The notes beneath the pieces are model-generated. The model saw only the letters and a list, made by a program, of their open reading frames with translations, did not search any database and had not been told where the DNA came from. A DNA stretch of 64,000 nt, taken from sequence record SRR20825010_791; one strand, 5' to 3'. Every line of letters starts with the position of its first letter. The first letter of the stretch is position 1. This document shows positions 24,687 through 48,589 of the stretch, piece by piece. The position numbers were made by a program, and so were the translations under genes.

Positions 24687-24731
24687 TGTAACAAAAGTTG
24701 CTGTGGACATTAAATGCCTGGCCTATCTTTA
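24687..24731 (+). promoter_or_regulatory. GTAAC-N4-GTTGC box + -7-like element upstream of the rhodanese operon
   Basis: TGTAACAAAAGTTGCTGTGGA (24687-24707); TATCTTTA at 24724-24731. Confidence 0.7.
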
Positions 24732-24762
24732 CACTATAAATAAATGTTTTGGTTGGTTGTAT

Positions 24763-24802
24763 AAGGAAACGGTCATTGTAAAAGGTGACGGTTTCCTTTT
24801 TT
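24763..24802 (+). terminator. Terminator-like hairpin in the leader of the rhodanese gene
   Basis: AAGGAAACGGTCATT / GGTGACGGTTTCCTT imperfect stem followed by a T6 run. Confidence 0.6.
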
Positions 24803-24839
24803 AAACAAGTAATTCAGATTAACGCAAAAAAGAAATAAT

Positions 24840-25184
24840 ATGTCTATTTTTAGTACACTTTTCGGAACAAGCAAAGAGAAATCGGATAAAATTGAAATAT
24901 TGAATCAGGCCGACTTTTCAGCCGCCATAGCGGGTAAAAAAGTACAACTTATAGATGTTCGTACGCCTAATGAATATGGTGGTGGTCATATAAAAAATGC
25001 TGTAAATGTTGACTTTTTCAATGCCACAGGCTTTGAAAGATATTGTGAAAAATTGGCCAAGGATAAGCCTGTGTATCTGTATTGTCGTTCTGGTGCAAGG
25101 AGTCAGAGAGCGGCGCATAAATTGATAGGTATGGGATTTGAAAAAGTAATTGACCTGAGGGGTGGCTACATGTCATGGAGATAA
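24840..25184 (+). CDS. Single-domain rhodanese (sulfurtransferase)
   Basis: LIDVRTPNEY..GHI, YCRSGARS active-site loop, LRGG..SW. Confidence 0.95.
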   Translation: MSIFSTLFGTSKEKSDKIEILNQADFSAAIAGKKVQLIDVRTPNEYGGGHIKNAVNVDFFNATGFERYCEKLAKDKPVYLYCRSGARSQRAAHKLIGMGFEKVIDLRGGYMSWR

Positions 25185-25226
25185 TATCCTTGCCAACAAG
25201 AGTTTATAAATTTGGCTTTTAACATT

Positions 25227-25499
25227 ATGAAATTAGCGCTCAGTGTTCAAAATATAAAATGTGGGGGTTGCGCTAAAACAATTACCACAAAATTATCGGA
25301 ATTGGAGAATATCTCGGAGATTATGGTTGATGTAAACTCTGGAACGGTATCCTTTGAATCGAACAACGTTACGGCCACGCAAAGGTTAAGGGATACCCTT
25401 AAAGCTTTGGGCTATCCTACGGTTGATGCCAAAAATGGCTTGGGAGATAAGGCCAAATCCTTTCTTAGCTGTGCGGCAGGAAGGATGATAAAGGAATAA
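25227..25499 (+). CDS. Heavy-metal-associated (HMA) domain protein
   Basis: VQNIKCGGCAKTI, ALGYP, C-terminal AKSFLSCAAGRM; ATG 25227 preferred over upstream TTG. Confidence 0.9.
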   Translation: MKLALSVQNIKCGGCAKTITTKLSELENISEIMVDVNSGTVSFESNNVTATQRLRDTLKALGYPTVDAKNGLGDKAKSFLSCAAGRMIKE

Positions 25500-25519
25500 A
25501 TCCAAAAAAAATTAGCTTT

Positions 25520-26548
25520 ATGAAGTATCTATCTTTCTTGACAATCCTTCTAATCACCCTGGTTAGCTGTAAGGAGGCTAAAAAAACGGAATCTATACCT
25601 GTAGAAATGGGGTTAGAAAACTCAACGGCTGATCATGCAAAGATACATCCAGGTAAAAAGATTATTGAGACAGAGTGCTATTTATGTCACAATCCTAAAG
25701 CATCAGAGGTAAGCATGATTGCGCCTCCTATGGTCGCTATTAAAAAGCACTATATCGATTCAACAACTACCAAGGAACAATTTACAAAAGCTATTGTAGG
25801 TTGGATCAATGATCCACAAGAAGAGAAATCCAAAATGCCGGGTGCCATAAATCGATTTGGGATAATGCCTTATCAACCCTATCCCGAAGAAACCATAAGT
25901 CATATTGCCGAATATATGTACGACTATGAAATTGCACAACCTGAATGGTTCGATGAACATTTTCAGAGGGAGCATGGTAGAAGATTGGGTAAAGGAAAGG
26001 GAATGGTTAAAGGTATGGGAAATGGAATGGGCCCAGGTTCCAAACATAGAGTACAAACGGATTATGGGGATATAGGTCTGGGTTATGCCTTGGCTACAAA
26101 GGCAGCACTGGGGAAAAACCTAATGAAGGCCATACAGGAAAAAGGTACGGATGGAGCGGTAGAATTTTGTAACCTCAGGGCTATAGAATTAACAGATAGT
26201 ATTTCTGTGATGAACAATGCCCAGATAAAAAGGGTATCCGATAAGCCAAGAAATCCAGATAATAAGGCCAACAAGGAAGAACTGGGATATATCGCTACTT
26301 TTAAAGAGCAGGTCGCCGCGGGTATCGAAGTAGATCCCGTAGTAGTTCCTGGTAATGAAGAAGTAACGGTATATTATCCTATAACTACAAACGCCATGTG
26401 CCTCCAATGCCATGGGAAACCCAACGAACAGGTCAAGCCTTCTACGCTGGCCACTCTAAGAAAATTATACCCGGAAGATAAGGCCGTTGGCTATAATGTA
26501 AATGAGGTCCGTGGAATATGGAGCGTGGTTTTTGATAAAAATAAGTAG
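25520..26548 (+). CDS. Di-heme c-type cytochrome lipoprotein with C-terminal DUF3365 (Tll0287-like) domain
   Basis: LVSC lipobox; CYLCH and CLQCH; AVEFCN, RVSDKPRNPDN, YPEDKAVGY..NEVRGIWSV. Confidence 0.88.
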   Translation: MKYLSFLTILLITLVSCKEAKKTESIPVEMGLENSTADHAKIHPGKKIIETECYLCHNPKASEVSMIAPPMVAIKKHYIDSTTTKEQFTKAIVGWINDPQEEKSKMPGAINRFGIMPYQPYPEETISHIAEYMYDYEIAQPEWFDEHFQREHGRRLGKGKGMVKGMGNGMGPGSKHRVQTDYGDIGLGYALATKAALGKNLMKAIQEKGTDGAVEFCNLRAIELTDSISVMNNAQIKRVSDKPRNPDNKANKEELGYIATFKEQVAAGIEVDPVVVPGNEEVTVYYPITTNAMCLQCHGKPNEQVKPSTLATLRKLYPEDKAVGYNVNEVRGIWSVVFDKNK

Positions 26549-26790: not shown

Positions 26791-26827
26791 TAAATTTGTT
26801 AACCAACTGGTTAAACCGTTTAGTTAA
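26791..26827 (+). promoter_or_regulatory. -7 box and tandem palindromic TetR operator
   Basis: TAAATTTG (26791-26798) directly followed by TTAACCA-AC-TGGTTAA (26799-26814) and a degenerate second copy running into the tetR ATG. Confidence 0.7.
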
Positions 26828-27429
26828 TGAAAGATCAGAGCACAGAAGAAAATATACTAAAGGCAGCCGTAAGCGTCTTCCAAAAGAAAGGTATGGCAGG
26901 AGCCCGTATGCAGGAGATTGCGGATGAGGCTAAAATTAACAAGGCCATGCTGCACTACTATTACAAGAGTAAGCAAAAATTGTTCGAGGCGGTATTTAGG
27001 CAGGCCTTTGAAAAGTTTGCTCCCCATATCAACCAGGTTTTTAACTCCGATAAAAGCGTTTTTGAAAAAATAACTGAATTTACAGATAGCTATATTTCCT
27101 TTGTCATGGAGAATCCATATCTGCCCAACTTTCTTATTCAGGAAATAAATAACAATCCGGAGTTTGCGGATTTATTTTTTGGCTCTGAGATTGCGCCCAA
27201 CCCTTTGCCTTTTAAGAAACAGATAGCGGAGGAAATAGAGATGGGAATTATAAAGCCCATAGACCCTAAACAATTGTTGTTAAACCTATTTTCCTTGACG
27301 GCCTTTTCCTTTGTTGGGACCGGCCTGGTCCGAGGAATATTGAACTTGGACGAAAAAACATTTAAAGCCATGATGGAGGAACGTAAGATTTTGATTCCAG
27401 AGCTTTTAATTAATTCGATTAAAAAATAA
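26827..27429 (+). CDS. TetR/AcrR family transcriptional regulator
   Basis: N-terminal HTH: ILKAAVSVFQKKGMAGARMQEIADEAKINKAMLHYYYKSK. Confidence 0.95.
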   Translation: MKDQSTEENILKAAVSVFQKKGMAGARMQEIADEAKINKAMLHYYYKSKQKLFEAVFRQAFEKFAPHINQVFNSDKSVFEKITEFTDSYISFVMENPYLPNFLIQEINNNPEFADLFFGSEIAPNPLPFKKQIAEEIEMGIIKPIDPKQLLLNLFSLTAFSFVGTGLVRGILNLDEKTFKAMMEERKILIPELLINSIKK

Positions 27430-27542
27430 AACATTCATGCTTAGTTTAAAACACACTGGGAAAGTAATTAGTTGGATTTTGCACCCGCCAGAATGACTTT
27501 GTCGGCCTAGTGCTCCCACTGAAAATCAATAAATAAAAACAC

Positions 27543-28808
27543 ATGAAAAGACTTTTTTTAATATTAATTTTCACTATACCTCTTGGCGCCTTGGCCCAGC
27601 AGACCCTAAGGTTGGAGGAGTGTTTTGACCTTGTTGCCGAGAATTATCCCTTGGCCAAACAAACCGGATTATTGGAAAGTCAGGTACAAATGGATATTGA
27701 AGCCTTAAGAACGGGCTATTTGCCCAAACTGGACCTCAACGCCCAGGCCACCTACCAGTCCGATGTTACAAGTTTGCCGATCCAGATACCGAATGTAACG
27801 GTAGAACCTCCCAATAAGGACCAATATCGCGCCACCTTGGATGTAAACCAAATGATATATAACGGAGGGATGATCAATGCTTCCTCCATGGTGAAGGAGG
27901 CAGCCTCAAAGGTAAACCAACAGCAGTTGGAGGTGAGCCTCTACGGATTAAAAAGCCAGGTCAATTCCATTTACTTATCAGTTTTATTGCTTCAGGAAAA
28001 CCAGGCATTGCTCCAAGCCAAGGAAGAGCAATTAAAGGCACGTTTGGAAGATGTTAAGGCTGGGGTAAAATATGGGACTTTGTTGGGGTCTTCTGAAAAA
28101 ACACTGGAAGCGGAACTCCTAAAATTAAGACAACAGTTTACGGAGTTGAGGTACAATAAATTGGAGTTGGTACAACGCTTGTCCTTACTTATTGGCATGG
28201 AATTATCTTCCGATGTAAACCTTGAAAGACCTGCCGTTTTTATGTCGGAAACCCAATCCGAGCGACCAGAAATTCAGCTTTTCGACCTTCAAAAGGAACA
28301 GATAGATTTTTCCTCCAAACTAATTTCAAAGACCAATCTCCCAAAAATCAATGCTTTTGCCCAAGGGGGTTATGGCAATCCGGGGCTGAATATGTTGGAC
28401 AATTCTTTTAAAGCCTTCTATATGGCAGGTTTAAAATTGAATCTGAACATCTTTGATTGGAACAAGACCAGGACCGAGAAACAATCCCTTGAAATAAACA
28501 AGGAAATTATAGATACCCAAAAAGAGACCTTTGAACTGAACAACAATTTGGAATTGGTAAAACTCGAGTCCGAAATTGATAAGATCGATGCCTTGATTTT
28601 CACCGATAGGGAGATTATAGTACTACGCGAGGATATTCTAAAAACAGCGGAATCCCAATTGAACAACGGTGTAATTACAGCATCGGCCTATATTACCGAA
28701 TTTACAAATTTATATGAGGCAAAAAGCAATCTAAATCTACACGAAACACAATTGCTATTGCACAAAATTCAATACGAAATTACCAAAGGCAGCTATTACA
28801 ATAACTGA
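27543..28808 (+). CDS. TolC family outer-membrane channel
   Basis: Signal peptide, AENYPL, YLPKLDL, LPKINAF, NIFDW; precedes HlyD/ABC genes. Confidence 0.9.
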   Translation: MKRLFLILIFTIPLGALAQQTLRLEECFDLVAENYPLAKQTGLLESQVQMDIEALRTGYLPKLDLNAQATYQSDVTSLPIQIPNVTVEPPNKDQYRATLDVNQMIYNGGMINASSMVKEAASKVNQQQLEVSLYGLKSQVNSIYLSVLLLQENQALLQAKEEQLKARLEDVKAGVKYGTLLGSSEKTLEAELLKLRQQFTELRYNKLELVQRLSLLIGMELSSDVNLERPAVFMSETQSERPEIQLFDLQKEQIDFSSKLISKTNLPKINAFAQGGYGNPGLNMLDNSFKAFYMAGLKLNLNIFDWNKTRTEKQSLEINKEIIDTQKETFELNNNLELVKLESEIDKIDALIFTDREIIVLREDILKTAESQLNNGVITASAYITEFTNLYEAKSNLNLHETQLLLHKIQYEITKGSYYNN

Positions 28809-28830
28809 TATATAACAATACCTGAATAAA

Positions 28831-29733
28831 ATGAAACATCCATATTTAATATTGACAAGTCTTCTAATGAGCCTTTTAGGTTCTTGTACCGGCAATGGGG
28901 ATAAGGCCGATGGTTACGGTAATTTTGAAGCTACGGAAATAACTATTTCGGCAGAGGCCAATGGAAAAATTTTGTTCCTGGATGCGGAAGAAGGAAACGT
29001 ACTGGCCCAAAATAAGGTTGTTGGGGTTATAGACACCATTCAGCTTTCCTTAAAGCGCGAACAATTATTGGCTTCCAAAAACACTATTTTTTCGAAATCC
29101 AGAAATGTACTATCTCAAAGGGAAGTACTTAAGGAGCAATTAAAAGTGGCCCAAAATGACAGGACTAGGATAGAGAACCTATTGCAGGCAAAAGCTGCAA
29201 CTACCAAACAATTGGATGACATTACTGGACAGATCAATATTATCAAAGAACAAATTAAAAGTGTGGAAACTCAAAATTCGCCCATCATCAATGAGATAAA
29301 AAGTATAGAAATACAAATACGGCAAATTGAAGACCAAATCAATAAAAGTGTCATTCAGAACCCTGTGAAGGGCACGGTCCTGGTTAAATATGCCGAACCC
29401 AATGAAATTACTGCATTTGGGAAACCCTTATATAAAATAGCCAACCTGAAAGATATGATTCTAAGGGTCTATATCAGTGAAAATCAATTATCCAAACTGA
29501 AAATTGGGCAGGAAGTAAACGTAAAAATTGATGCAGGCAAGGAGATGAAATCTTATCCAGGGGTAGTATCCTGGATCGCGGAAAGCGCAGAATTTACTCC
29601 TAAAATTATTCAAACCAAAGAAGAACGTGTCAATCTGGTCTACGCCGTTAAAGTTAAAGTCCGTAATGATGGAAGTTTAAAAATTGGGATGCCTGCAGAA
29701 ATGTGGATTGCCACGAAAACTAATGAAGAATGA
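28831..29733 (+). CDS. HlyD family periplasmic adaptor (YbhG-like)
   Basis: Lipobox LLGSC; GNFEATEITIS, AEFTPKIIQTKEERVNLVYAVKV, LKIGMP. Confidence 0.93.
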   Translation: MKHPYLILTSLLMSLLGSCTGNGDKADGYGNFEATEITISAEANGKILFLDAEEGNVLAQNKVVGVIDTIQLSLKREQLLASKNTIFSKSRNVLSQREVLKEQLKVAQNDRTRIENLLQAKAATTKQLDDITGQINIIKEQIKSVETQNSPIINEIKSIEIQIRQIEDQINKSVIQNPVKGTVLVKYAEPNEITAFGKPLYKIANLKDMILRVYISENQLSKLKIGQEVNVKIDAGKEMKSYPGVVSWIAESAEFTPKIIQTKEERVNLVYAVKVKVRNDGSLKIGMPAEMWIATKTNEE

Positions 29734-30113
29734 AAACGACCTTGATTATCGCGACCATACTTGCAATCCTGATCGGCACCCTATCCGTAATCTCAGGTTC
29801 CATGGTCCTTTTGGGGCTGCGTTCCGTGGATTATAGGGTACTGGATTGGTTGGTGGTCTATAACGTTACCCTTGGAATTATATCCATTTTGGTGGCCTAT
29901 CAAATAGGTAAACAACACAGTAGGTCTAAATTAATGATAATGACCATCCTGCTTTTGCATTTTTTGGTATTGGTCTATTTGTACTTTTTTAATGATATGG
30001 TAGCTGATGAGAGTATAAAGGCAATGGCCTTTAGGGTAGGCATATGGGTAGCAATACTACTTCTGGTACTTCTAAATCATACAAAAACATTAAGTAACAA
30101 AATAAAATCATGA
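29730..30113 (+). CDS. Small hypothetical membrane protein (about 4 TM)
   Basis: ATGA overlap with the adaptor gene; four hydrophobic segments. Confidence 0.75.
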   Translation: MKTTLIIATILAILIGTLSVISGSMVLLGLRSVDYRVLDWLVVYNVTLGIISILVAYQIGKQHSRSKLMIMTILLLHFLVLVYLYFFNDMVADESIKAMAFRVGIWVAILLLVLLNHTKTLSNKIKS

Positions 30114-30178
30114 GCCATGAAACTAAAAATCACCTTCTTGATAGTGCTATCCTTAGTTTTTATTGAGCGGTTAAGAAA

Positions 30179-31090
30179 ATGAGCATCATTCTAAACAATA
30201 TCAGCAAATCGTACAACAAAGTAAAAGCTGTGGAGGATATTTCCTTTGAGGTAAAGCCAGGGGAACTGTTCGGACTGATAGGTCCGGACGGCGCAGGAAA
30301 GACCACCCTGTTTCGAATCCTGACCACCTTACTGATTCAGGATAAGGGAAATGCTACCGTTGCCGGATTTGATGTTCTAAAGCAATACAAGGATATCAGA
30401 AATCACGTGGGTTATATGCCGGGGAGGTTTTCCTTATACCAAGATCTTACGGTGGAAGAAAATCTTAATTTTTTCGCTACTATTTTTGGAACTACAATAG
30501 CGGAGAACTATGATTTGATCAAGGATATTTATATCCAAATAGAACCATTTAAAGATCGTTGGGCAGGAAAATTATCGGGTGGGATGAAACAAAAACTGGC
30601 CCTCTGCTGTGCTTTGATCCATAAACCCAAGGTGTTGTTTTTGGATGAGCCTACCACAGGGGTAGATCCAGTTTCCCGCAAAGAGTTTTGGGAGATGTTA
30701 AAACGCTTACAGCAAAAGGACATCACTATTTTGGTATCTACTCCGTATATGGATGAAGCCGAACTTTGTGATAGGATTGCGCTGATTACCAACGGAAAAA
30801 TATTGCAGATCAACACGCCCCAGGAAATTATCGCATCGTTCCCAAAGAAAATATTTAAGGTACGTAGTTCCAATACCTATCAATTAATCGAAGACTTAAG
30901 AGTTTACCCAGAAACCAATAGCGCGTATCCCTTTGGAGAATATCTTCATTTTACCCCTAGGTCCGAAGTATTTGGGCCAATGGATTTAACCAAATATTTG
31001 GAGGAAAGACAGCATAAGGAGATTGAGGTTAAAGAGACCGTGGCAACTATTGAGGATACCTTTATGGACCTATCTAAAGCAAATGAATAG
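30179..31090 (+). CDS. ABC transporter ATP-binding protein
   Basis: GPDGAGKT, LSGGMKQK, LFLDEPT. Confidence 0.96.
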   Translation: MSIILNNISKSYNKVKAVEDISFEVKPGELFGLIGPDGAGKTTLFRILTTLLIQDKGNATVAGFDVLKQYKDIRNHVGYMPGRFSLYQDLTVEENLNFFATIFGTTIAENYDLIKDIYIQIEPFKDRWAGKLSGGMKQKLALCCALIHKPKVLFLDEPTTGVDPVSRKEFWEMLKRLQQKDITILVSTPYMDEAELCDRIALITNGKILQINTPQEIIASFPKKIFKVRSSNTYQLIEDLRVYPETNSAYPFGEYLHFTPRSEVFGPMDLTKYLEERQHKEIEVKETVATIEDTFMDLSKANE

Positions 31091-31825
31091 ATGACAGAAG
31101 ATAATATGATACAGGTCGAGAACTTGACCAAAATGTTCGGGGATTTCACCGCTGTAAACAACATCTCTTTTGAGGTGGGAAAAGGTGAGGTTTTTGGATT
31201 TTTGGGTGCCAATGGGGCCGGAAAGACAACAGCTATGAAAATGTTGATCGGAATTTCCGAACCTACCCACGGTAATGCCACCGTGGCTGGTTATAACGTC
31301 CTTACAGAGGCCGAACAGGTAAAGAAGAATATTGGGTATATGAGCCAACGCTTCTCTCTTTACAATGATTTGACCATTAAAGAAAATATTGTCTTTTTTG
31401 GGGGTATATATGGCTTGTCATCTACGGACATCAAAGAAAAGTCACAGGCCATGATCAATGAATTGGGATTGCATGATATGGCCGATTCCCTAGTAGGTTC
31501 CCTCCCTTTGGGGTGGAAACAAAAAGTGGCCTTTTCAGTTGCAATGCTCCACAATCCAAAAATTATTTTTTTGGATGAACCCACTGGAGGAGTAGACCCC
31601 ATTACCAGACGCCAATTTTGGGAAATGATCTATATGGAGGCCAATAGAGGAGTTACCATTTTTGTAACTACCCATTATATGGATGAGGCCGAATATTGTG
31701 ATCGGGTGTCTATCATGGTAGCTGGAAAGATAGAGGCTTTGGACACGCCAAAGAATCTAAAACGTCAGTTTCAAGTGGATTCCATGAACCGGGTATTCCT
31801 AAAATTGGCAAGGAACATAGAATAA
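31091..31825 (+). CDS. ABC transporter ATP-binding protein (degenerate LPLGW signature, YbhF C-half-like)
   Basis: GANGAGKT, LPLGWKQK, FLDEPT, THYMDEAE. Confidence 0.95.
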   Translation: MTEDNMIQVENLTKMFGDFTAVNNISFEVGKGEVFGFLGANGAGKTTAMKMLIGISEPTHGNATVAGYNVLTEAEQVKKNIGYMSQRFSLYNDLTIKENIVFFGGIYGLSSTDIKEKSQAMINELGLHDMADSLVGSLPLGWKQKVAFSVAMLHNPKIIFLDEPTGGVDPITRRQFWEMIYMEANRGVTIFVTTHYMDEAEYCDRVSIMVAGKIEALDTPKNLKRQFQVDSMNRVFLKLARNIE

Positions 31826-31835
31826 CAAGGGCAAA

Positions 31836-32942: not shown

Positions 32943-33017
32943 AGGTAATTTGGGAGCTAGTTAAAGGTCAATGAAAATGAATTTCGCATCACGGATTATC
33001 AAATTGATAATGTTTTA

Positions 33018-33092
33018 GTCTCCTTGAGCGAAGTCGAGAGGTCCTGGAAAATTACATCTTTAAAATTAGGTCTGGACTGCGCTCGACCGGAC
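33018..33092. repeat. Inverted pair of REP-like palindromic units
   Basis: GTCTCCTTGAGCGAAGTCGAGAGG (33018-33041, +) and GTCCGGTCGAGCGCAGTCCAGACC (33069-33092, -) share a GAGCG.AGTC.A core. Confidence 0.7.
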
Positions 33093-33143
33093 GACATTAC
33101 ACCAAATAACTCTAGTTTTTAAAAACTAAGTACTAAAAAGTTT

Positions 33144-37386: not shown

Positions 37387-37498
37387 TGTAACAAATGTTG
37401 CTGTGGAATAGATTTTAAAGTTTCAAATTTATAGTGGTTAGAATATTTAACATACTGATAATAATCATGTTAAGTATTTGAGCTATGTGCTAAATTTA
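37387..37498 (+). promoter_or_regulatory. Tandem regulated promoters upstream of sqr
   Basis: TGTAACAAATGTTGCTGTGGA (37387-37407) with CAAATTTA (37424-37431); ACTGATAATAATCAT (37454-37468) with TAAATTTA (37491-37498). Confidence 0.7.
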
Positions 37499-39016: not shown

Positions 39017-39163
39017 ATGGAAAACATGACACGAAGAATATCAAAATCCAAGCGCTTTTATATGATGAACCCTATTATCCAATTTTTTAAATTCATTTGG
39101 TTGAGTATAAAAATAATGTTGATCGTTGCGGGTGGTCACGGGGGCACCAGAAAGGCACAATAA
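39017..39163 (+). CDS. 48-aa small hydrophobic protein downstream of sqr (absent from the ORF track)
   Basis: MENMTRRISKSKRFYMMNPIIQFFKFIWLSIKIMLIVAGGHGGTRKAQ; A-rich start context TAAAATG, 38 nt after the sqr stop. Confidence 0.7.
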   Translation: MENMTRRISKSKRFYMMNPIIQFFKFIWLSIKIMLIVAGGHGGTRKAQ

Positions 39164-39325: not shown

Positions 39326-39343
39326 TGTAACTTAAGTAGCTGT
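39326..39343 (+). promoter_or_regulatory. Degenerate GTAAC-N4-GT(A)GC box upstream of the DUF2202 gene
   Basis: TGTAACTTAAGTAGCTGT, same TGT flank as the other copies. Confidence 0.55.
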
Positions 39344-39394: not shown

Positions 39395-40024
39395 ATGAAA
39401 CTTTTTAAACAAATAAGAACCAATTTATTCATTTTTGGCTTACCGTTCCTTTTGGCAGTGTTCTCCTGTAACAATGATGATTCATCCGTTGCGGATCTGA
39501 ATAATACAAACCTCACTAATGATGACAATGCGGCGTTATTGTTTATGTTGGAAGAGGAAAAGTTGGCAAGGGATACGTATACCTATTTGGAGGATTTATG
39601 GGAAATAAATCAGTTTTCAAATATAAAGAAAAGTGAACAAAGCCATATGAATGCCGTTATTGGCCTTTTGGACCAATATGATATTTCCTATACCCTTTTA
39701 TCATATGGGGAGTTTAATAACCCAGAAATTCAAAAACTTTATGATCAGTTTATTGATTACGGCAGTGAAAATAAGGCAAATGCCTTGGAGGTCGGTGCCA
39801 ACATTGAAGATTTGGACATTGTGGATTTGGCCAATTTTATTGATGCCACGACCAATAGTGCCATGATACAAGTATTTGAAAGCCTACAATGTGGAAGCCG
39901 TAACCACCTCAGGAGCTTTGTCAATGCCATTGAACTATTGGGGAATACTTATGAGCCCCAGTATTTAACCCAGGAAGACTATACCTTAATAATCAATGAT
40001 AGCCAGGAACAATGTGGTCCGTAA
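39395..40024 (+). CDS. DUF2202 ferritin-like lipoprotein
   Basis: AVFSC lipobox; MLEEEKLARDTY, SEQSHM, IEDLDIVDL, GSRNHLRSF. Confidence 0.88.
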   Translation: MKLFKQIRTNLFIFGLPFLLAVFSCNNDDSSVADLNNTNLTNDDNAALLFMLEEEKLARDTYTYLEDLWEINQFSNIKKSEQSHMNAVIGLLDQYDISYTLLSYGEFNNPEIQKLYDQFIDYGSENKANALEVGANIEDLDIVDLANFIDATTNSAMIQVFESLQCGSRNHLRSFVNAIELLGNTYEPQYLTQEDYTLIINDSQEQCGP

Positions 40025-40164: not shown

Positions 40165-40264
40165 TGTGTAACAATTGTTACACAACAATATGTGTAACTT
40201 ATTGATTTAAAATATATTGACTGACATATATCATTTTCCGCTCCTATTAAAGAACATACATTTA
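40165..40264 (+). promoter_or_regulatory. Perfect GTAAC-N4-GTTAC palindrome plus ACTGA-N6-TCAT box and -7-like element
   Basis: TGTGTAACAATTGTTACACA (40165-40184); ACTGACATATATCAT (40220-40234); TACATTTA (40257-40264). Confidence 0.7.
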
Positions 40265-40291: not shown

Positions 40292-40966
40292 ATGAAAAGA
40301 ATAATTTTTACAATGGTATTTATTGCATTTGGATCAATAATGCTTAATGCACAGGACCAAGACCAATTACGGGATAGGGACCAAGATCGATTAATGTTGG
40401 TGGATGGTGATGTACTACAAATTAGAGATCGAGACCAAATAAGATTACAAGATCCCGTAACATTAAATGATGGAACGGTTGTAAATCCTGATGGTTCTTA
40501 TATAACTAGGGATAAGGATCGTTTACGTCTAAAGGATGGGGAATGTTTGGACAATGATGGTATTAAATACCGTAATGAGTACCAATACAGATACAAAGTA
40601 AAACAGGAAAACAAAGGTCTTACCGAGGCTCAAATGCAGGAACGTAACCAAAATAGGTTTCAGATTATGCAAATAGGTGGTGAAGTATATCAAATTAGAA
40701 ATCAAGAACAAAAACGTCTTCAGCAGCAATTAAACCTCGGCGACGGAATATTGGTCAATCCTGATGGAACCTACCAAAGCCAAGACCGCAAACAGCTTAA
40801 ATTGCAAGATGGAGAATGTTTAAATATGGATGGTACCATGTATAAGAATTCATATCTACATCGTAAAATGATGGTTCAAAAAAACATGAAAGTAAACAAA
40901 AACATGAAGATGAAAAGCAGAGTTAAGAAGTCAACGACTATGAAAAAGAATAAAGGCAACAATTAA
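40292..40966 (+). CDS. Secreted protein with two DUF6799-like repeats and Q/D/R-rich segments
   Basis: ATG 40292 gives signal peptide MKRIIF...LNA-Q; duplicated VNPDG...L.L.DGECL..DG; Lys/Met-rich tail. Confidence 0.75.
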   Translation: MKRIIFTMVFIAFGSIMLNAQDQDQLRDRDQDRLMLVDGDVLQIRDRDQIRLQDPVTLNDGTVVNPDGSYITRDKDRLRLKDGECLDNDGIKYRNEYQYRYKVKQENKGLTEAQMQERNQNRFQIMQIGGEVYQIRNQEQKRLQQQLNLGDGILVNPDGTYQSQDRKQLKLQDGECLNMDGTMYKNSYLHRKMMVQKNMKVNKNMKMKSRVKKSTTMKKNKGNN

Positions 40967-41040: not shown

Positions 41041-41943
41041 ATGAAATCCCGGCTAATTATATCTTCATTAATATTTTTTGCTCTTAATACCGGGGTGATG
41101 TCCCAAAATAATAAAAAATCTGTCCAAGAAAAATCCAATGACAATGAATCTTACGTTCTAACCGATGTAAGCTACATAAATGATGCTGTGTTTATGGGAA
41201 GGCGGGATTCTATTGCAGCCCCATATATTTACCCTTCTATTGGCTATTACGATAAGACGGGTTTTTTTGCAGATGCCTCAGTATCGTATTTAACGGCATC
41301 CAACGAAAACAGGGTAGATCTTTTTTTAATCAGTTCAGGGTTTATATTTAATGGATCACAGATTAGTGGAGGAATATCGGGAACCGCTTATTTTTTTAAT
41401 GAGGACAGTTATAATGTTAGGTCCGAAGTTATTGGCGATATTACCGGAGTTTTAAGTTATGACTTAAAGTTTCTGGAAATTACACTTTCGGCAAGTACAT
41501 ATTTTAATAAAGAAAGTTCAGTAGATATTTTTACTGGACTAAAATTGGATAGAACCTTTTATACTCTTGGGAACAAGCTATTGCTGGATCCGGGTATTTC
41601 CCTGTATACCGGATCACAATATTTCTATCAGGAATATTATAGTAGCAGTCGTTTAGGCAACAGAAAGGGAAAAGGAAAGGGGGCTACTGATACAGAACCA
41701 ACTACCTCCACTGTGGTGGAAATAAAGGAGGCATCAGAGTTTAATCTCTTAAACCTGGAGTTAAGTCTTCCTGCGCAATTTTATCACAAGCAATTTATTT
41801 TTTCTATTACCCCTTCCTTGTCTTTTCCCCAAAGCAGTGCCACTATAAGTACCGAGGATACCATTATAAAGGAAGATCTAAAAAATACATTCTATTGGAC
41901 CATTGGCGTTAGCTATTGGTTTTATACCAAAAAAAGAAACTAA
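41041..41943 (+). CDS. Uncharacterised outer-membrane beta-barrel-like protein
   Basis: Signal peptide, alternating aromatic/hydrophobic strands, C-terminal YWTIGVSYWF. Confidence 0.65.
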   Translation: MKSRLIISSLIFFALNTGVMSQNNKKSVQEKSNDNESYVLTDVSYINDAVFMGRRDSIAAPYIYPSIGYYDKTGFFADASVSYLTASNENRVDLFLISSGFIFNGSQISGGISGTAYFFNEDSYNVRSEVIGDITGVLSYDLKFLEITLSASTYFNKESSVDIFTGLKLDRTFYTLGNKLLLDPGISLYTGSQYFYQEYYSSSRLGNRKGKGKGATDTEPTTSTVVEIKEASEFNLLNLELSLPAQFYHKQFIFSITPSLSFPQSSATISTEDTIIKEDLKNTFYWTIGVSYWFYTKKRN

Positions 41944-41973: not shown

Positions 41974-42018
41974 GGTAACATTAGTTACTGTGCAATCCTT
42001 TTACTCCCCCTAATTTTG
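41974..42018 (+). promoter_or_regulatory. GTAAC-N4-GTTAC box + consensus -7 box upstream of the TolC-RND operon
   Basis: GGTAACATTAGTTACTGTG (41974-41992); TAATTTTG (42011-42018). Confidence 0.75.
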
Positions 42019-42036: not shown

Positions 42037-43341
42037 ATGAAGAATATCATTTATATACTGTCTTTTTTGGGAACCTTGTCCTTGGTTCACGCTCAGGAAA
42101 GAGTGTTGATCAGCAAGGAAGAGGTATTGACCAAAGTGAGGGAAAACAACAATACCCTTAAAATGTCCCAACAGGATGTGTTGGCCGCCAAAGGAGATTT
42201 TAATCAGTCCAATGCGGTAATATTGCCTAATATAAGTGTCTCCCATACCGCTATTGCTACTACCAATCCTCTAATGGCATTTGGTTCCAAATTGAACCAG
42301 GAAATTTTGACACAGGCCGATTTTGATCCCCTCTTATTAAACAACCCCAGTCAGATCGAGGATTACGCAACACGTATAGTAGTGCAGCAGCCTTTGGTAA
42401 ATTTGGACGGAATTTTTCAACGTAAGGCTGCAAAAGCCAAATTGAATGCTGTGGAGTTAAAAGCTGATAGGACCAATGATTATATAGACTTGGAGGTGGA
42501 AAAGGCCTATATGCAGTTACAGTTGGCCTATAAGTCCGTCTCGGTTTTGGAAGAGGCGAAAAAGGCGGCAATGGAAAATAAACGTTTGGCGGATAATAGT
42601 TTTAAGCAAGGATATCTTCAAAAATCGGATGTCCTAGCCGTAGAGGTTAGGCTTACCGAAATAGACAATCAGTTGCAGTATGCCAAGAGCAATATCCAAA
42701 ATGTCTCCAATTACATATCTGTCTTGATGAACGATAACAGTTATGCTGTTTTACAACCATCGGATTCCTTGACCCTAGTGGTGAGTGATATCTATACGGA
42801 AGGATTGCCTGAGAATAGAAAGGACCTACAGGCCATGTCCTTGTCCACTGAGGCATACCAACAAATGTACAAGGCAGACAAAATGAGTTTCCTTCCTAGC
42901 TTAAATGCCTTTGGAACCTATGAATTGCACGATGATCAAGTTTTTCAGGGCAATGCCAATGGATATTTGATAGGGGCAGAATTAAAATGGAACATTTTTG
43001 AAGGCAGTAAGCGTTTTGGAAAGGTCCAAAAGAGTAGGGCCGAATTTGAAAAATCCAAGCTGGAACTGCATCAATATAAAGCGGAAAGTCAGGTAGAGTT
43101 GAATAGGGCCATGCGTTTGCTTCAAGATGCCAAAAACAATTTGGAGCTTACCTCCTTGGCCTTGCAACAGTCGGAAGAATCCCTCCGTATACGTACCAAT
43201 AGATTTACACAAGGCTTGGAGAAAACGACCGACCTATTAAATACCGAAACCCAATTTTCCCAGAAGAGATTGGAATATTACACCACTATTTTCAATTATA
43301 ATTACGCCTTGGCTTATGTAAAGTTTTTAACCAAGGAATAA
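42037..43341 (+). CDS. TolC family outer-membrane channel
   Basis: Signal peptide (VHA-Q), ILPNISVS, FLPSLNAF, KWNIFEG. Confidence 0.92.
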   Translation: MKNIIYILSFLGTLSLVHAQERVLISKEEVLTKVRENNNTLKMSQQDVLAAKGDFNQSNAVILPNISVSHTAIATTNPLMAFGSKLNQEILTQADFDPLLLNNPSQIEDYATRIVVQQPLVNLDGIFQRKAAKAKLNAVELKADRTNDYIDLEVEKAYMQLQLAYKSVSVLEEAKKAAMENKRLADNSFKQGYLQKSDVLAVEVRLTEIDNQLQYAKSNIQNVSNYISVLMNDNSYAVLQPSDSLTLVVSDIYTEGLPENRKDLQAMSLSTEAYQQMYKADKMSFLPSLNAFGTYELHDDQVFQGNANGYLIGAELKWNIFEGSKRFGKVQKSRAEFEKSKLELHQYKAESQVELNRAMRLLQDAKNNLELTSLALQQSEESLRIRTNRFTQGLEKTTDLLNTETQFSQKRLEYYTTIFNYNYALAYVKFLTKE

Positions 43342-43389: not shown

Positions 43390-44469
43390 ATGAAAACAAA
43401 ATTATACATAGCAGCAATCTTCATCTTCGCCATAACGATTAGCAGTTGTGGGAGCGATGATAAAAAAACTGTGGCGGACAATTCTCCTGCCGTGGCCGTT
43501 GAAGTAAGCACGGTTTCTGAAGGGAACAGCAGTCCGTTCCTATCCGCCAGCGGAAAGATAGAGGCGGTGAACAGTGCCAATATAAGTACCAGAATGATGG
43601 GATATGTAGATAAGATTTTCGTACAGGTTGGGGATAAAGTTAATAAAGGACAGCAATTGATAAGTATAAACAATGCAGATATATCTGCTAAGTTGGCCCA
43701 AGTGAATGCAGGTATTACCGAAGCAAATGCCGCTTTTAACAATGCTGAAAAAGATTATAACAGGTATACTGCCTTGTTTAACGAGAACAGTGCTTCCCAA
43801 AAGGAACTGGACGACATTACCGCCAACTACAACATGGCCAAGGCCAGATTGGAAGGGGCCAAACAAATGAAGAACGAGGTGAATGCCCAATTTTCCTATA
43901 GCAATATTCGGGCTCCTTTTAACGGAGTGGTCACCAACAAATTTATTAAGGTTGGGGATATGGCAAATCCAGGGATGCCTTTAGTGGAAGTAGAAAGTCC
44001 GGGTAATTTTCAGGTATTGGCCATGGTACCGGAATCGGAAATTCTAGAGATCAAGTCGGGTTCGGAAGTCGAGGTATTGATCAAGACCCTGGACGAAACC
44101 TTTAAGGGAACAGTAGCGGAAGTGAGTACCTCTGCCAAAAATACTGGAGGACAGTATATGGTTAAGGTAATGTTGGATGAGTCCAATTCCAAACTACTTT
44201 CTGGAATGTACGCCACTGTTCAATTTCCTACTGCAAAAAAAGCGAATACCAATAGGGTGCTTATTCCTCTGGAGGCGATAGTGCAAAACGGACAGTTATC
44301 CGGAGTGTATACGGTTAGTGAGAGCAATACGGCACTATTACGCTGGTTGCGGTTGGGGAGGACTTATGGCGATAGTGTAGAGGTATTGTCAGGACTTTCT
44401 GCCGAGGAACAATATATAATATCGGCCGAAGCCAAATTGTTCAATGGGGCTAGGATTAGTATCCAATAA
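43390..44469 (+). CDS. RND periplasmic adaptor (MFP) lipoprotein
   Basis: ISSC lipobox; GDKVNKGQQL, IRAPFNGVV, LLSGMYATV, VEVLSGL. Confidence 0.93.
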   Translation: MKTKLYIAAIFIFAITISSCGSDDKKTVADNSPAVAVEVSTVSEGNSSPFLSASGKIEAVNSANISTRMMGYVDKIFVQVGDKVNKGQQLISINNADISAKLAQVNAGITEANAAFNNAEKDYNRYTALFNENSASQKELDDITANYNMAKARLEGAKQMKNEVNAQFSYSNIRAPFNGVVTNKFIKVGDMANPGMPLVEVESPGNFQVLAMVPESEILEIKSGSEVEVLIKTLDETFKGTVAEVSTSAKNTGGQYMVKVMLDESNSKLLSGMYATVQFPTAKKANTNRVLIPLEAIVQNGQLSGVYTVSESNTALLRWLRLGRTYGDSVEVLSGLSAEEQYIISAEAKLFNGARISIQ

Positions 44470-44649: not shown

Positions 44650-47600
44650 ATGAAAGAAGGATTAGCAGGCAAAATTGCCAAAGCATTTATAGGATCTAAG
44701 TTAACGGTCCTTTTAATGATCGTGTTCATGGTCATTGGGGTATATAGTTCGTTCCTAATTCCAAGGGAGGAGGAGCCTCAGATAGATGTGCCTATGGCAG
44801 ATATCTTTGTAGGCTATCCAGGGGCCAGTCCCACTGAAGTAGAGAGCAGGGTAACCAAACCCCTTGAAAAGTTAATCTCCAATATTAAGGGTGTGGAGTA
44901 CGTCTACTCTACCTCTATGGAGGAACAGGGAATGGTTATAGTGCAGTTTTATGTTGGTGAGGATATAGAACGTTCGTTTGTTAAACTACAGAACGAGATC
45001 AATAAGCATATGGACGAAATGCCACAAGGTGTTACCTTCCCTTTGATAAAGACCAGGGCTATAGATGATGTTCCCATGTTGGGACTTACCTTATGGAGTG
45101 AAAGTTATGACGATTACCAACTAAAGCAAATAGCTCAGGAGCTTACCGATGAAATTGAAAAAGTAAACGATGTGTCCGCTACCCAAAGAATTGGTGGACG
45201 AAATAGACAATTAAGGGTGGTATTGGACAAGGATAAATTGGCGGAAAGCGGGTTGGATTTTCTTACCGTTGCCCAAATGATCAAGGCCAATAACCAACAA
45301 ATTAGCGGTGGTACTTTTGATAAGAACGATACCGAATTTATGGTGACCACAGGTAAATTCCTGGAAACTGCTACCGATGTTGAAAATTTGGTGGTAGGCG
45401 TACAACAGAACCGTCCTATTTATCTGAAGCAGATTGCCAGTATACAGGATGGCCCCGAAATTCCTAAGGAATACGTATCCCTCGGTTTTGGGCAGGGAAG
45501 TGAACAAAGGGAAACCTATAAGTCCGAATATCCTGCAGTAACCATTTCCATAGCCAAGCGCAAAGGGGCGGACGCCATGAATATATCGGATATTATTTTG
45601 GAGAAGGTAGATCATTTAAAGAAAAATCTTATCCCGGATGATGTGCATGTGGAGGTGACACGGAACTACGGGGAAACGGCGTCCCACAAGGTATCCGAAC
45701 TGTTAATGCACCTTATTGGTGCCATAATAGCGGTGACCTTTGTAGTAATGTTGGCCATGGGATGGCGTGGGGGATTGGTGGTGTTTCTATCCGTACCCAT
45801 CACCTTTGCCTTAACTCTATTGAGTTATTATTTGTTGGACTACACCTTGAACCGTATCACCTTATTTGCATTGGTTTTTGTAACGGGTATTGTGGTGGAC
45901 GACTCCATTATTATTGCGGAAAACATGCACCGGCATTTTAAAATGAAACGCCTGCCGTTTAAACAGGCTGCACTGTATGCCATTAATGAAGTGGGCAACC
46001 CAACCATATTGGCCACTTTTACAGTAATTGCTTCTGTATTGCCAATGGCTTTTGTCTCCGGTCTTATGGGGCCTTATATGTCGCCAATGCCGATTGGAGC
46101 TTCAATTGCCATGTTGTTGTCCCTTTTTGTTGCCTTGACGATAACACCATATTTGGGGTATATATTTCTTAGGGAGAAGGATAAAAAAGGAGAGGAAAAG
46201 GTAGAGAAACCTTTGGAGGAAACCTTTATATATAGAATGTACCATAAGTTTGAAAACCCTTTGATCGAAAACAAAAAGAAACGATGGTTGTTTTTGGGAA
46301 TTACCTTTCTGTTGCTATTGGGTTCTATAGGGATGTTCTTTACCAAATCGGTGGCGGTAAAAATGTTGCCGTTCGACAATAAGAACGAATTTCAGGTGGT
46401 CATAGACATGCCCGAAGGGACTACTTTGGAACGTACGGGAGTAGTGGCAAAGGAGATTGCCCAATATTTGAACACCCGTCCAGAGGTGGTAAACTACCAG
46501 AGTTATGTGGGTACTTCCGCACCAATAACATTCAACGGACTTGTACGTCATTATGATATGAGGGGAGGAAGTAATATGGCCGATATTCAAGTGAATTTAT
46601 TGGATAAGGGCGACCGATCTGCCCAAAGTCATGAGATAGCCAGTTTATTACGTCCGGAGATACAACGTATTGGGAACAAGTATAATGCCAACGTTAAGAT
46701 TGTTGAGGTACCACCTGGACCTCCGGTGTTGTCTACCATTGTTGGGGAAATATATGGCCCTGATTATGACACACAAATGGATATTGCAGATCAGGTACAG
46801 CAGATTTTGAAAAACACCCCGGATGTGGTGGATGTGGATTGGATGGTAGAAGCAGACCAAGTGGAATATCAGTTTATAATAGACAAGGAAAAGGCAATGC
46901 TCTATGGTGTGGCACCACAACAAATTGCCCATACCATGAATATGGCCCTGTCGGAAAGGGCGGTGACCAATCTATACGATGAAAATGCTTCCATTCAAAT
47001 AGGTTTGATATTGGCCTTGGAAGAAAAGGAAAAATCAACTATTCAGGATATTGCCCAATTGAAGGTGAAATCACAGCAAGGAAATATGGTCCCTATAGCA
47101 GATTTGGTAGCTATAGAGCAGACCACAAGGGCCAAGAGTATTTATAGAAAAAACCAAAAGCGGGTGGTCTATGTACTGGCCGATATGGCCGGGGATTTGG
47201 AAAGTCCAGTGTATGCCATTTTGGGAATGACCGATAAGTTGAAGGCAATGAATTTGCCAAAGGGATATTCCATTGATGAGCTGTACATAAAGCAACCCGA
47301 TTTTGAGGATAATTACACCGTAAAATGGGATGGGGAATGGCAGATAACCTTGGAGGTATTCCGGGATCTGGGATTGGCCTTCCTAGGGGTAATTTTCATC
47401 ATCTATATATTGATCGTGGGCTGGTTCCAAAATTTTAAGGCCCCAGTAGTGATGATGGTGGCCATACCACTTTCCTTAATCGGGATTGTATTGGGACATT
47501 GGATGTTGGATGCATTTTTTACGGCAACTTCCTTTATTGGAATGATTGCGCTAGCGGGAATTATGGTTAGGAACTCGGTGTTATTGATCGATTTTATTAA

Positions 47601-47841
47601 TCTGCGATTGGCGGAAGGTATTCCTTTAAAACTGGCCGTAATTGAAGCCGGAGCCGTAAGGACTACCCCTATTCTATTAACAGCGGGAACCGTGGTTATT
47701 GGAGCGTTTGTAATCCTATTCGATCCAATTTTCCAAGGGCTGGCCATTTCTTTGATGGGCGGTACCATAGTCTCTACCGTACTTACCTTGTTAGTGGTGC
47801 CTTTGGTGTATTATATGATAGAAAGGAAGAACTATAAGTAA
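44650..47841 (+). CDS. AcrB/AcrD/AcrF family RND permease
   Basis: 1063 aa, PREEEPQI, YPGASPTEVE, GIVVDDSIIIAEN, GIMVRNSVLLIDF, RTTPILLT. Confidence 0.95.
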   Translation: MKEGLAGKIAKAFIGSKLTVLLMIVFMVIGVYSSFLIPREEEPQIDVPMADIFVGYPGASPTEVESRVTKPLEKLISNIKGVEYVYSTSMEEQGMVIVQFYVGEDIERSFVKLQNEINKHMDEMPQGVTFPLIKTRAIDDVPMLGLTLWSESYDDYQLKQIAQELTDEIEKVNDVSATQRIGGRNRQLRVVLDKDKLAESGLDFLTVAQMIKANNQQISGGTFDKNDTEFMVTTGKFLETATDVENLVVGVQQNRPIYLKQIASIQDGPEIPKEYVSLGFGQGSEQRETYKSEYPAVTISIAKRKGADAMNISDIILEKVDHLKKNLIPDDVHVEVTRNYGETASHKVSELLMHLIGAIIAVTFVVMLAMGWRGGLVVFLSVPITFALTLLSYYLLDYTLNRITLFALVFVTGIVVDDSIIIAENMHRHFKMKRLPFKQAALYAINEVGNPTILATFTVIASVLPMAFVSGLMGPYMSPMPIGASIAMLLSLFVALTITPYLGYIFLREKDKKGEEKVEKPLEETFIYRMYHKFENPLIENKKKRWLFLGITFLLLLGSIGMFFTKSVAVKMLPFDNKNEFQVVIDMPEGTTLERTGVVAKEIAQYLNTRPEVVNYQSYVGTSAPITFNGLVRHYDMRGGSNMADIQVNLLDKGDRSAQSHEIASLLRPEIQRIGNKYNANVKIVEVPPGPPVLSTIVGEIYGPDYDTQMDIADQVQQILKNTPDVVDVDWMVEADQVEYQFIIDKEKAMLYGVAPQQIAHTMNMALSERAVTNLYDENASIQIGLILALEEKEKSTIQDIAQLKVKSQQGNMVPIADLVAIEQTTRAKSIYRKNQKRVVYVLADMAGDLESPVYAILGMTDKLKAMNLPKGYSIDELYIKQPDFEDNYTVKWDGEWQITLEVFRDLGLAFLGVIFIIYILIVGWFQNFKAPVVMMVAIPLSLIGIVLGHWMLDAFFTATSFIGMIALAGIMVRNSVLLIDFINLRLAEGIPLKLAVIEAGAVRTTPILLTAGTVVIGAFVILFDPIFQGLAISLMGGTIVSTVLTLLVVPLVYYMIERKNYK

Positions 47842-47870
47842 TTGCGAGTTTAAATGAGATAGTTCTACAG

Positions 47871-47979
47871 ATCCCTGAGCGGAGTCGAAGGGAGCGCTCT
47901 AGGAAATTGATTTAATCTATGTGGGAAATGGCTATTTATCCAAATTTTATGGACCGGTCTCTAAGCTTAGTCGAAGAGA
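47871..47979 (+). repeat. Two REP-like units of the same family as 33018-33092
   Basis: ATCCCTGAGCGGAGTCGAAGGGA (47871-47893) and degenerate GTCTCTAAGCTTAGTCGAAGAGA (47957-47979). Confidence 0.65.
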
Positions 47980-48055
47980 GCCCGGTATAGCCCAAAGAAG
48001 GTAAAGCCTCAAGAAATCATTTTGGCAATAGAATTGAAACTAAAAATAAATAATT

Positions 48056-48361
48056 ATGAAACTACTCATAGTAACCGTTGTGGAGGAGTTCGCCAAGGAA
48101 ACTCTAAAACTCTTTAAAAAAGCAAATATTGAAAGCTTTAGTGGCTCCGATATAGATGGATATAAAAATCCAGCCCAAGTGCTCATGGCTTCAAATTGGT
48201 TCCCTAGTGAAAAAGGAGGTGTAGAATCTGCCATGTTTTTTTCCTTTACCACAGAAGAGAATATTGATATCCTTTTTCAACTTATTTCTGAATTCAACAA
48301 TAATTTGGAAACCAACAATCCCATAAGGGCTGCCGTGGTTCCCATAGAAAAATATATTTAG
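48056..48361 (+). CDS. Small hypothetical protein, possibly PII-like fold
   Basis: 101 aa; MKLLIVT start and terminal VVPIEK strand resemble PII-like proteins; co-oriented with the RND operon. Confidence 0.6.
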   Translation: MKLLIVTVVEEFAKETLKLFKKANIESFSGSDIDGYKNPAQVLMASNWFPSEKGGVESAMFFSFTTEENIDILFQLISEFNNNLETNNPIRAAVVPIEKYI

Positions 48362-48382
48362 TAACCTTTAAAAAATAATATT

Positions 48383-48589
48383 ATGATCAACAGGTATATC
48401 CGGGCAATTGCCGGGGCTTTTGTAGTTATTAGTGTTGTATTGGCCGTATACGTAAACATAAACTGGTTGTGGTTTACCGTTTTTGTAGGTGTTAATCTTT
48501 TTCAATCTGCATTTACACAATGGTGCCTTATGGAAAAGATTTTATTCAAATTGGGGGTAAAAAAGGAAGGCGATAGTTGTACTGTTTAG
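48383..48589 (+). CDS. DUF2892 / YgaP-like small membrane protein
   Basis: RYIRAIAG...FVGVNLFQSAFTQWCLME with conserved Cys. Confidence 0.88.
   Translation: MINRYIRAIAGAFVVISVVLAVYVNINWLWFTVFVGVNLFQSAFTQWCLMEKILFKLGVKKEGDSCTV

Follow-up and report, generated by a model that had tools for sequence, protein, structure and literature searches.

The stretch analysed here, called the window throughout, comprises the 64,000 nucleotides of sequence record SRR20825010_791 and comes from a marine flavobacterium. Between positions 24,687 and 48,589 it carries five transcription units, headed by genes for a rhodanese, a sulfide:quinone oxidoreductase (SQR; gene sqr), a DUF2202 protein, a DUF6799-like protein and a TolC-family exporter component, and a 14-bp palindrome of the form GTAAC-N4-GTTRC, here called the sulfur box. 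An original prediction, made from the letters alone, placed this box upstream of all five units, as is indeed the case, and proposed that a Crp/Fnr-type activator encoded outside the window uses it to co-induce a sulfide and sulfane-sulfur regulon. Comparison of related sequences indicates that the palindrome is a real, widely conserved activator site of the predicted kind. The features are as follows; G001 denotes the window's nearest genome, 96% identical over the region, and G041 a genome of the same genus.

24688..24701, + strand: sulfur box of the rhodanese-HMA-cytochrome operon, GTAAC-N4-GTTGC, exact match, kept in G001 and G041
24724..24731, + strand: -7 element TATCTTTA, at +36 from the box start
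24840..25184, + strand: single-domain rhodanese (PF00581, E 1.6e-22)
25227..25499, + strand: HMA-domain protein with CxxC (Cys12/15; PF00403)
25520..26548, + strand: two-haem cytochrome c lipoprotein with two CxxCH motifs and a C-terminal Tll0287-like domain (PF11845; PDB 5B82, E 6e-6)
37388..37401, + strand: sulfur box of sqr promoter P1, exact match
37424..37431, + strand: weak -7 element CAAATTTA of sqr P1
37455..37468, + strand: FNR-like box CTGAT-N4-ATCAT of sqr promoter P2
37491..37498, + strand: TAAATTTA, the -7 element at +36 in sqr P2
37521..38978, + strand: sqr (PDB 3HYV, E 1.8e-34)
39017..39163, + strand: conserved 48-aa open reading frame (ORF) behind sqr
39327..39340, + strand: degenerate sulfur box before DUF2202, with a poor -7 element
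39395..40024, + strand: DUF2202 lipoprotein, a relative of MJ0754 (PF09968; PDB 3Q4N, E 2.9e-40)
40168..40181, no strand assigned: perfect sulfur box (exact match) without a -7 element of its own, 53 bp upstream of an FNR-like box
40221..40234, + strand: FNR-like box CTGAC-N4-ATCAT of the DUF6799 promoter
40257..40264, + strand: -7 element TACATTTA, at +36 from the FNR-like box
40292..40966, + strand: secreted two-repeat DUF6799 protein (PF20606), its start moved to the ATG at 40292 from the starts of orthologues
41041..41943, + strand: secreted 300-aa protein without a Pfam family
41975..41988, + strand: perfect sulfur box (exact match) of the TolC-MFP-RND operon
42011..42018, + strand: -7 element TAATTTTG, at +36
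42037..43341, + strand: TolC-family outer-membrane factor (PF02321)
43390..44469, + strand: RND periplasmic adaptor (TIGR01730, above cut-off)
44650..47841, + strand: RND permease (PF00873), below the cut-off of every named subfamily tested
48056..48361, + strand: 101-aa protein of the RND operon, conserved and without a family
48383..48589, + strand: YgaP-like (DUF2892) membrane protein (PF11127)

The box and its promoter geometry

Exact matches to GTAAC-N4-GTTRC occur in the whole 64-kb window at 24688, 37388, 40168 and 41975. The window holds six strand-matches of this pattern, compared with a mean of 0.09 over 100 shuffles, none of which reaches six. The remaining one of the five predicted copies, at 39327 (GTAACTTAAGTAGC), departs from GTAAC-N4-GTTAC at two positions. 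Because matches at the two-mismatch level number 31 in the window where 21.6 are expected, close to chance, this site taken alone is statistically non-significant; it is backed by its conservation before orthologues. One more copy, with one mismatch, starts within the coding sequence of an ABC permease at 33711; no -7 element accompanies it.

The Flavobacterium promoter consensus is quoted as TTG-N17-23-TAnnTTTG in bioRxiv 10.1101/172254. The proposal that such a -7 element starts exactly 36 nt after the start of three of the boxes holds in full at 24688 and 41975, and at 37388 the element is present but lacks its initial T. The same offset holds a poor -7 element behind the 39327 box (GATATTGC) and none behind the 40168 box (GATTTAAA). 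Two finer details were also correct: only a single base distinguishes the 21-nt stretch at 24687 from that at 37387, and the 40168 box sits in a perfect 20-bp palindrome (40165-40184), which is imperfect in G001. A second half-site, TGTGTAAC, is found at 40187-40198, 22 bp past the 40168 box, and gives rise to an overlapping inverted repeat at 40177-40198. A generic scan for sigma-70 promoters and terminators gave counts at chance level.

Conservation of the box and spacing

Conservation was assessed in a family sample of 151 Flavobacteriaceae genomes. Of 24 full-length sqr orthologues, 22 are preceded by a box with at most one mismatch, and NAnnTTTR stands at +36 in 21 of these 22; of the genes set aside from this count (one fragment and five more distant SQR-like genes), four of the five distant ones also have the box within one mismatch. 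Before TolC orthologues (the best 30 of 60) the box recurs within one mismatch in 29, accompanied in 26 by the -7 element at +36. The box is thus conserved before orthologues. DUF2202 loci carry it within two mismatches in 9 of 12 cases, five of the nine with the -7 element at +36.

The spacing between box and core promoter is sharp. In 164 intergenic sites from 61 loci, chosen around the regulator described below or sqr, offset 36 yields 131 matches to NAnnTTTR and every other offset from 20 to 61 yields at most 10; the gap between box and -7 element is fixed at 22 bp, which sets the box directly against the -33/-35 region, as in class II activator-dependent promoters. The compound pattern, defined as the box plus a -7 element at exactly +36, has 376 matches in the 151 genomes compared with 20 for its reversed control, and is present in 114 of these genomes.

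A candidate Crp/Fnr-family reader

The reader had been predicted to lie outside the window, and a suitable protein is found in G001. A profile search detects four Crp/Fnr proteins above the Pfam cut-off in this genome, one of which (210 aa; C3:1526621-1527250) has as neighbours the genes for SulP and for a fusion of persulfide dioxygenase with rhodanese, each with the box in front of it. Its closest named relatives are from Arenibacter. The candidate at L029:14619-15251 scores 42.7 bits against PF00027 and 38.8 bits against PF13545, above the cut-offs and as expected of the Crp/Fnr superfamily, and a structural model of the regulator matches CRP, NtcA and FNR structures.

Regulator and box occur together. 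Relatives of the regulator are present in 135 of the 151 family genomes and in 78 of 201 genomes sampled across the phylum. The compound promoter is found in 114 of the 135 family genomes with the regulator and in none of the 16 without it, several of these 16 being small and kin not being independent. Genomes with a strong regulator match have 1.86 sites per Mb and those without have 0.64, again among kin that are not independent. Around 41 regulator genes there are 74 perfect intergenic boxes and three scored as coding.

A closer link between protein and site comes from the recognition helix. Its sequence, SRVVxSR, resembles the TRVTVTR of NtcA in the Arg-Val..Arg pattern, and residues 180/181 of this helix are tied to the sequence of the site in PMC1274295. 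For 100 regulator loci, 75 encoding a protein with Arg-Val and 25 one with Arg-Glu, the closest site in intergenic DNA no more than 2.5 kb away was classified by type. The Arg-Val proteins have a GTAAC-type site in 49 cases, a GTGAC-type site in five, a hybrid in four and none in 17; the Arg-Glu proteins have a GTAAC-type site once, a GTGAC-type site 15 times, no hybrid, and no site in nine cases. The Arg-Glu homologues adjoin GTGAC-N4-GTCAC. On a quick tree the helix residue changes five times, four of the changes being forced by strong branches, and the site follows the residue in close relatives (L326/L327 versus L329, L337 versus L340, and L333 versus L332/L361). Of the evidence tying the protein to the box, this co-variation is judged the strongest that can be had without a binding assay. 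Together, these comparisons make it very probable that the cognate reader of the box is a Crp/Fnr-family protein acting as an activator.

The regulator has only three conserved cysteines in the family sample, Cys77 (41 of 41), Cys83 (40 of 41) and Cys84 (40 of 41), which align to the effector-pocket segment of NtcA.

Paralogues extend these observations. Three genomes with both Arg-Val and Arg-Glu paralogues (L365, L381 and L368) carry both types of box, and the GTGAC box lies directly behind the Arg-Glu gene. A paralogue clade that retains only Cys77 (GDTCAISF; L364, L367, L374, L376 and L101) adjoins genes for exported rhodaneses. Most boxes of this clade have no -7 element at +36, and at several loci they lie upstream of FNR-like promoters.

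Target genes

The first genes behind oriented boxes encode mainly proteins of sulfide and sulfane-sulfur metabolism, as the original prediction had proposed for the regulon. They comprise a persulfide dioxygenase-rhodanese (26), SQR (19, plus four of another type), TauE (18), TolC (18), peroxiredoxin (7), SulP (6), rhodanese (5), CydA (4), a Tll0287-like cytochrome (3) and YeeE (3), with DsrE, TsdA-like and molybdo-oxidoreductase genes occurring more rarely. In G001 five of the seven exact compound sites precede genes for SulP, the persulfide dioxygenase and a thioredoxin-like protein as well as the rhodanese and TolC operons. The known sensors of reactive sulfur species (RSS), namely CstR, SqrR/BigR and FisR, control the same set of genes, as described in PMC13467558 and PMC7315123, and RND pumps are named among the genes near such regulators in PMC12423496.

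The protein encoded at 37521-38978 is predicted to be an SQR, a flavoprotein with the three conserved cysteines of the Aquifex and Acidithiobacillus enzymes; its Cys 142, 180 and 412 align with the three cysteines of Aquifex SQR. The 48-aa ORF behind it has a homologue behind sqr at 12 of 16 sqr loci, 71-86% identical, and no Pfam family; it is possibly an SQR partner. The cytochrome of the first operon carries the two haem motifs originally assigned to it, and Tll0287 is reportedly linked to sulfide oxidation in cyanobacteria. The RND pump is present in 60 of the 151 genomes. Its assignment to sulfane-sulfur export, like that of sulfur-related roles to the DUF proteins, is guilt by association.

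A second, FNR-like box

The view of the five units as one set stands in part: three have the plain activator geometry, but the DUF2202 site is degenerate and the DUF6799 unit has a different, FNR-like promoter. Palindromes of the form TGAY-N4-RTCA, overlooked originally, lie at 37455 and 40221, and both are followed at +36 by a complete TAnnTTTA. The window has two more matches, which fall inside genes and lack a -7 element. Across all loci compared, a strict -7 element lies at +36 in 99 of 624 oriented FNR-like sites and in at most six at other offsets. In G001 the FNR-like box marks the usp cluster and an fnr-like gene beside a heavy-metal ATPase gene, and the three Crp/Fnr proteins of G001 other than the regulator have TE[ST] helices, one of them with an N-terminal CxxC. 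The FNR-like box is probably a low-oxygen site.

At sqr, the FNR-like box follows the sulfur box in 10 of 24 orthologues, including that of G041, and in these, as in the window, the first -7 element lacks its initial T. Thus, sqr appears to have two tandem promoters, P1 with the sulfur box and P2 with the FNR-like box. The DUF6799 unit is predicted to be primarily of the FNR type, because the FNR-like promoter is kept in 10 of 11 orthologues and the sulfur box in seven of 11, where it is placed 32, 41 or 53 bp further upstream and in no case has a -7 element of its own. In this unit, which includes the candidate barrel gene, the upstream sulfur box would tune a mainly FNR-type promoter. Offsets of the sulfur box upstream of FNR-like promoters fall near 32, 43, 53 or 64 in 13 of 17 cases up to 65 bp, and the other four are 38, 47, 48 and 49; with three longer offsets left out and the rows being related, helical phasing is suggestive at most.

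A comparable layout is known from the E. coli ansB and yfiD promoters, which have an FNR site near -41 and a second Crp-family site near -92, the upstream site co-activating ansB and damping yfiD. The arrangement at 40221/40168 resembles this pairing with other regulators. Because one of the two E. coli promoters is co-activated and the other damped, the analogy gives no sign for the effect of the 40168 box.

Comparison with known regulators

NtcA of cyanobacteria (PDB 2XGX, 9GUI) shares the Crp/Fnr fold and the Arg-Val..Arg recognition helix. The familiar NtcA site has the consensus GTA-N8-TAC in a class II position, and the box of the regulator fits GTA-N8-TAC. Unlike NtcA, the regulator scores 44.9 bits against a cut-off of 244.95 (TIGR03697), and it has fixed inner bases (GTAAC/GTTAC), three pocket cysteines and sulfur rather than nitrogen targets. 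It differs from CRP in score (50.9 against a cut-off of 266; NF008732) and in having Arg-Val rather than Arg-Glu in the helix. It differs from FNR in lacking the N-terminal Fe-S cysteine cluster, in score (21 against 228; NF008365) and in site, that of FNR being TTGAT-N4-ATCAA. The best solved relative by both sequence and fold, EUBREC_1222 (PDB 3DV8), has Cys at the 77 and 83 positions but an Arg-Glu helix and about 23% identity.

CstR, SqrR/BigR and FisR likewise control sqr, pdo, rhodanese, tauE and yeeE/yedE, mostly through cysteine pairs, according to PMC13467558 and PMC7315123. Those proteins have CsoR, ArsR and Fis folds and act as repressors or as a sigma-54 activator, in contrast to the Crp fold and putative sigma-70 class II activation considered here. 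The accessible text of PMC13467558 includes no Crp/Fnr member among the primary RSS sensors reviewed. The CRP-like motif (CLM) of Chlorobaculum tepidum, from a related lineage with a similar RpoD promoter, is a predicted Crp-type site before the sulfur-regulated psrABC and cydAB, but as described in bioRxiv 10.1101/172254 the distance from it to the -6 box downstream is 49 bp, the N4-6 spacer is missing, the targets are different and the reader is unproven. No description of the regulator was found in the literature searched, a scope that excludes most subscription papers, RegPrecise and the supplements of PMC3590769; the accessible portion of PMC3590769 has no passage with GTAAC or Flavobacteri.

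The signal and alternative readings

A class II activator that senses reactive sulfur is likely because the targets form the classic sulfide-detoxification set. Persulfide sensing is the likeliest mode because these sulfur targets coincide with conserved pocket cysteines. A reactive-sulfur signal is accordingly probable.

The same regulator and geometry could instead answer to sulfite or thiosulfate bound in the pocket, or to general thiol-oxidising stress. TauE, SulP, YeeE, peroxiredoxin and thioredoxin are frequent targets, the regulator occurs in 135 of 151 genomes and this type of SQR in only about 24, and Cys83/84 vary in distant homologues. However, no target is as frequent as persulfide dioxygenase, SQR and cytochrome bd turn up repeatedly, and 40 of 41 family members retain all three cysteines, so that an oxidised-anion or thiol-stress signal seems unlikely.

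Targets that include cytochrome bd, the HMA protein, cytochromes c and the RND pump, along with cysteine clusters able to bind metals, would also suit a sensor of oxygen or redox state or of a metal cofactor (Fe-S, haem or copper) governing a low-oxygen or copper response. Such a sensor would be redundant at sqr, where the separate FNR-like box, which already serves usp and cbb3-linked genes, is present; moreover, the RND pump falls below the CusA/CzcA cut-off and the N-terminal FNR cysteines are missing. This reading is distinctly improbable.

The sulfur-box motif itself is already in print as the predicted site of HcpR2, a Crp/Fnr-family nitric-oxide regulator: GTAACnnnnGTTAC, the identical 14-mer, is given for Bacteroides, Clostridia and Thermotogales in PMC1274295, and HcpR2 itself occurs in Bacteroides. 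HcpR2 has Pro181 and regulates hcp only, in anaerobes, whereas all 41 proteins here have Val at that position. HcpR2 always accompanies hcp, yet hcp (PF03063) was found in none of five near-complete genomes by a search that was positive in five of 14 controls, and no gene for nitric-oxide detoxification is among the annotated first genes. Membership of HcpR2 is thus not borne out by the sequences, and an HcpR2-type function is very improbable.

It is scarcely tenable that the Crp gene is a mere neighbour and that the protein bound to the box is a repressor from a different family (Rex, CsoR/CstR or ArsR/SqrR): ArsR-family genes are present in all five genomes tested and most known RSS sensors are repressors, but Rex is found in none and CsoR-type proteins in one of the five, the spacing upstream of the core promoter is sharp to one base, and the box co-varies with the Crp helix and vanishes with the Crp gene.

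Several observations weigh against a reactive-sulfur regulon read by this Crp/Fnr protein. Counted across whole genomes, the 14-mer by itself is no more frequent than expected from its reversed control, the reversed word being common; for this reason the analysis moved to the compound pattern, and the genome scan originally suggested succeeds only in that form. Twenty-one of the 135 regulator-bearing genomes have no exact compound site, and a GTGAC-type site is nearest at five Arg-Val loci. For the organism of the window, the regulator gene is represented only by its relatives in G001 and in named Arenibacter genomes. The gene census is biased toward neighbours of the regulator and sqr because loci were chosen near them; the unbiased census of G001 yields only seven exact compound sites, of which two precede an MFS transporter gene (behind a DsrE gene) and a DoxX operon. 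G001 retains the regulon without an sqr of this type. Among 150 distant representatives, Cys77 is kept in 145, Cys83 in 74 and Cys84 in 85, making only Cys77 near-invariant, and some one-Cys homologues still adjoin sulfur genes.

Proposed mechanism

The box, its fixed gap, the co-occurrence of the regulator, the co-variation of the helix and the gene content are all borne out by sequence comparison. In the proposed mechanism, the box would serve as operator for an activator of the Crp/Fnr family that is conserved in Bacteroidota and whose gene lies in another part of the genome. A dimer would bind at about -41 and recruit RNA polymerase to promoters without a good -33 element (class II activation). 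Persulfide or polysulfide, from SQR or cysteine breakdown, may switch the regulator on by modifying Cys77 and Cys83/84, which lie in what was once the cAMP pocket. SQR would convert sulfide to sulfane sulfur, rhodaneses and persulfide dioxygenase would carry this to sulfite or thiosulfate, and TauE, SulP, YeeE and perhaps the RND pump would move sulfur species out. A separate FNR-like regulator would supply a low-oxygen input such that the tandem promoters of sqr answer either signal, and the FNR-type promoter of the DUF6799-barrel unit would be modulated by its upstream sulfur box through either co-activation or damping.

Class II activation, persulfide switching of cysteines and the steps of sulfur flow, taken jointly, form a reasonably likely account. 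A broader proposal is tentative and has somewhat less than an even chance of holding in all its parts: that primary sensors of reactive sulfur include a fourth structural class, to which the regulator belongs as a Crp/Fnr activator whose cAMP pocket has turned into a Cys-x5-Cys-Cys persulfide trap. It would govern sulfide detoxification in most Flavobacteriaceae and many other aerobic Bacteroidota, would be wired at single promoters to an FNR-like oxygen sensor, with either-signal logic at sqr and two-input logic at DUF6799, and would be served by a dedicated TolC-MFP-RND-YgaP pump that exports sulfane-sulfur species.

Other genes of the region

The structure model of the DUF6799 protein has a confident fold (pLDDT 79). 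Fold searches brought up no clear match, Foldseek giving none at E<=0.001 and the best Z being 4.3, and an Atlas search returned only its own family. The 300-aa protein encoded next to it is possibly an outer-membrane barrel; barrel-family neighbours at a score of 0.91 make this a lead. A 99-aa ORF across the first box (24505-24804) was rejected as a gene; it has no family and its frame differs in G001.

Between the two blocks of box-preceded units lies a TetR-TolC-HlyD-ABC exporter operon (26827-35005), with a TTAAC-N6-GTTAA palindrome at 26799-26814 just before tetR. The 33711 match in its ABC permease gene aside, it has no box, which by sequence places it outside the regulon. A similar exporter operon adjoins sqr in G114 (L257), a genome of another genus.

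The block 35007-39262, which includes sqr, is missing in G001; run X1 (probably DNA) has the same junction at 35006 and so lacks the block as well. G041 has sqr and lacks the three genes at 35009-37350, which encode a 299-aa protein, an ATP-cone/Mrr-like protein and a PycTM-domain protein. Because this block varies among G001, X1 and G041, sqr evidently comes and goes between closely related strains, whereas the regulon is kept. The PycTM gene (36778-37350) encodes a Pycsar-effector membrane protein and has no adjoining cyclase gene; the ATP-cone/Mrr-like gene beside it has a paralogue in the usp cluster of G001. Intergenic repeats at 32990-33100 and 47860-48000 have many similar copies in G001. 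The flanks (481-24249 and 48861-63409) hold two SusC/SusD carbohydrate loci with a hybrid two-component regulator, two DHDPS-like lyases, a GH2 exo-glucosaminidase-like gene and a DegT-family aminotransferase.

Implications

Algal particles and biofilms, settings in which oxygen meets sulfide, are broken down chiefly by flavobacteria. No sulfide regulator described for flavobacteria was found in the literature searched, which leaves most subscription papers outside. The finding offers a candidate sensor whose fold differs from the CsoR, ArsR and Fis folds of the reviewed primary sensors, together with its exact site, promoter geometry, three candidate residues and a list of targets. The second box illustrates a way in which sqr may integrate signals of oxygen and of sulfide. 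The sulfur box also draws attention to the RND pump, the Tll0287-like cytochrome and DUF2202 as proteins that may repay study in sulfur metabolism. If the proposal is true, the Crp-type reader would be an undescribed kind of reactive-sulfur switch.

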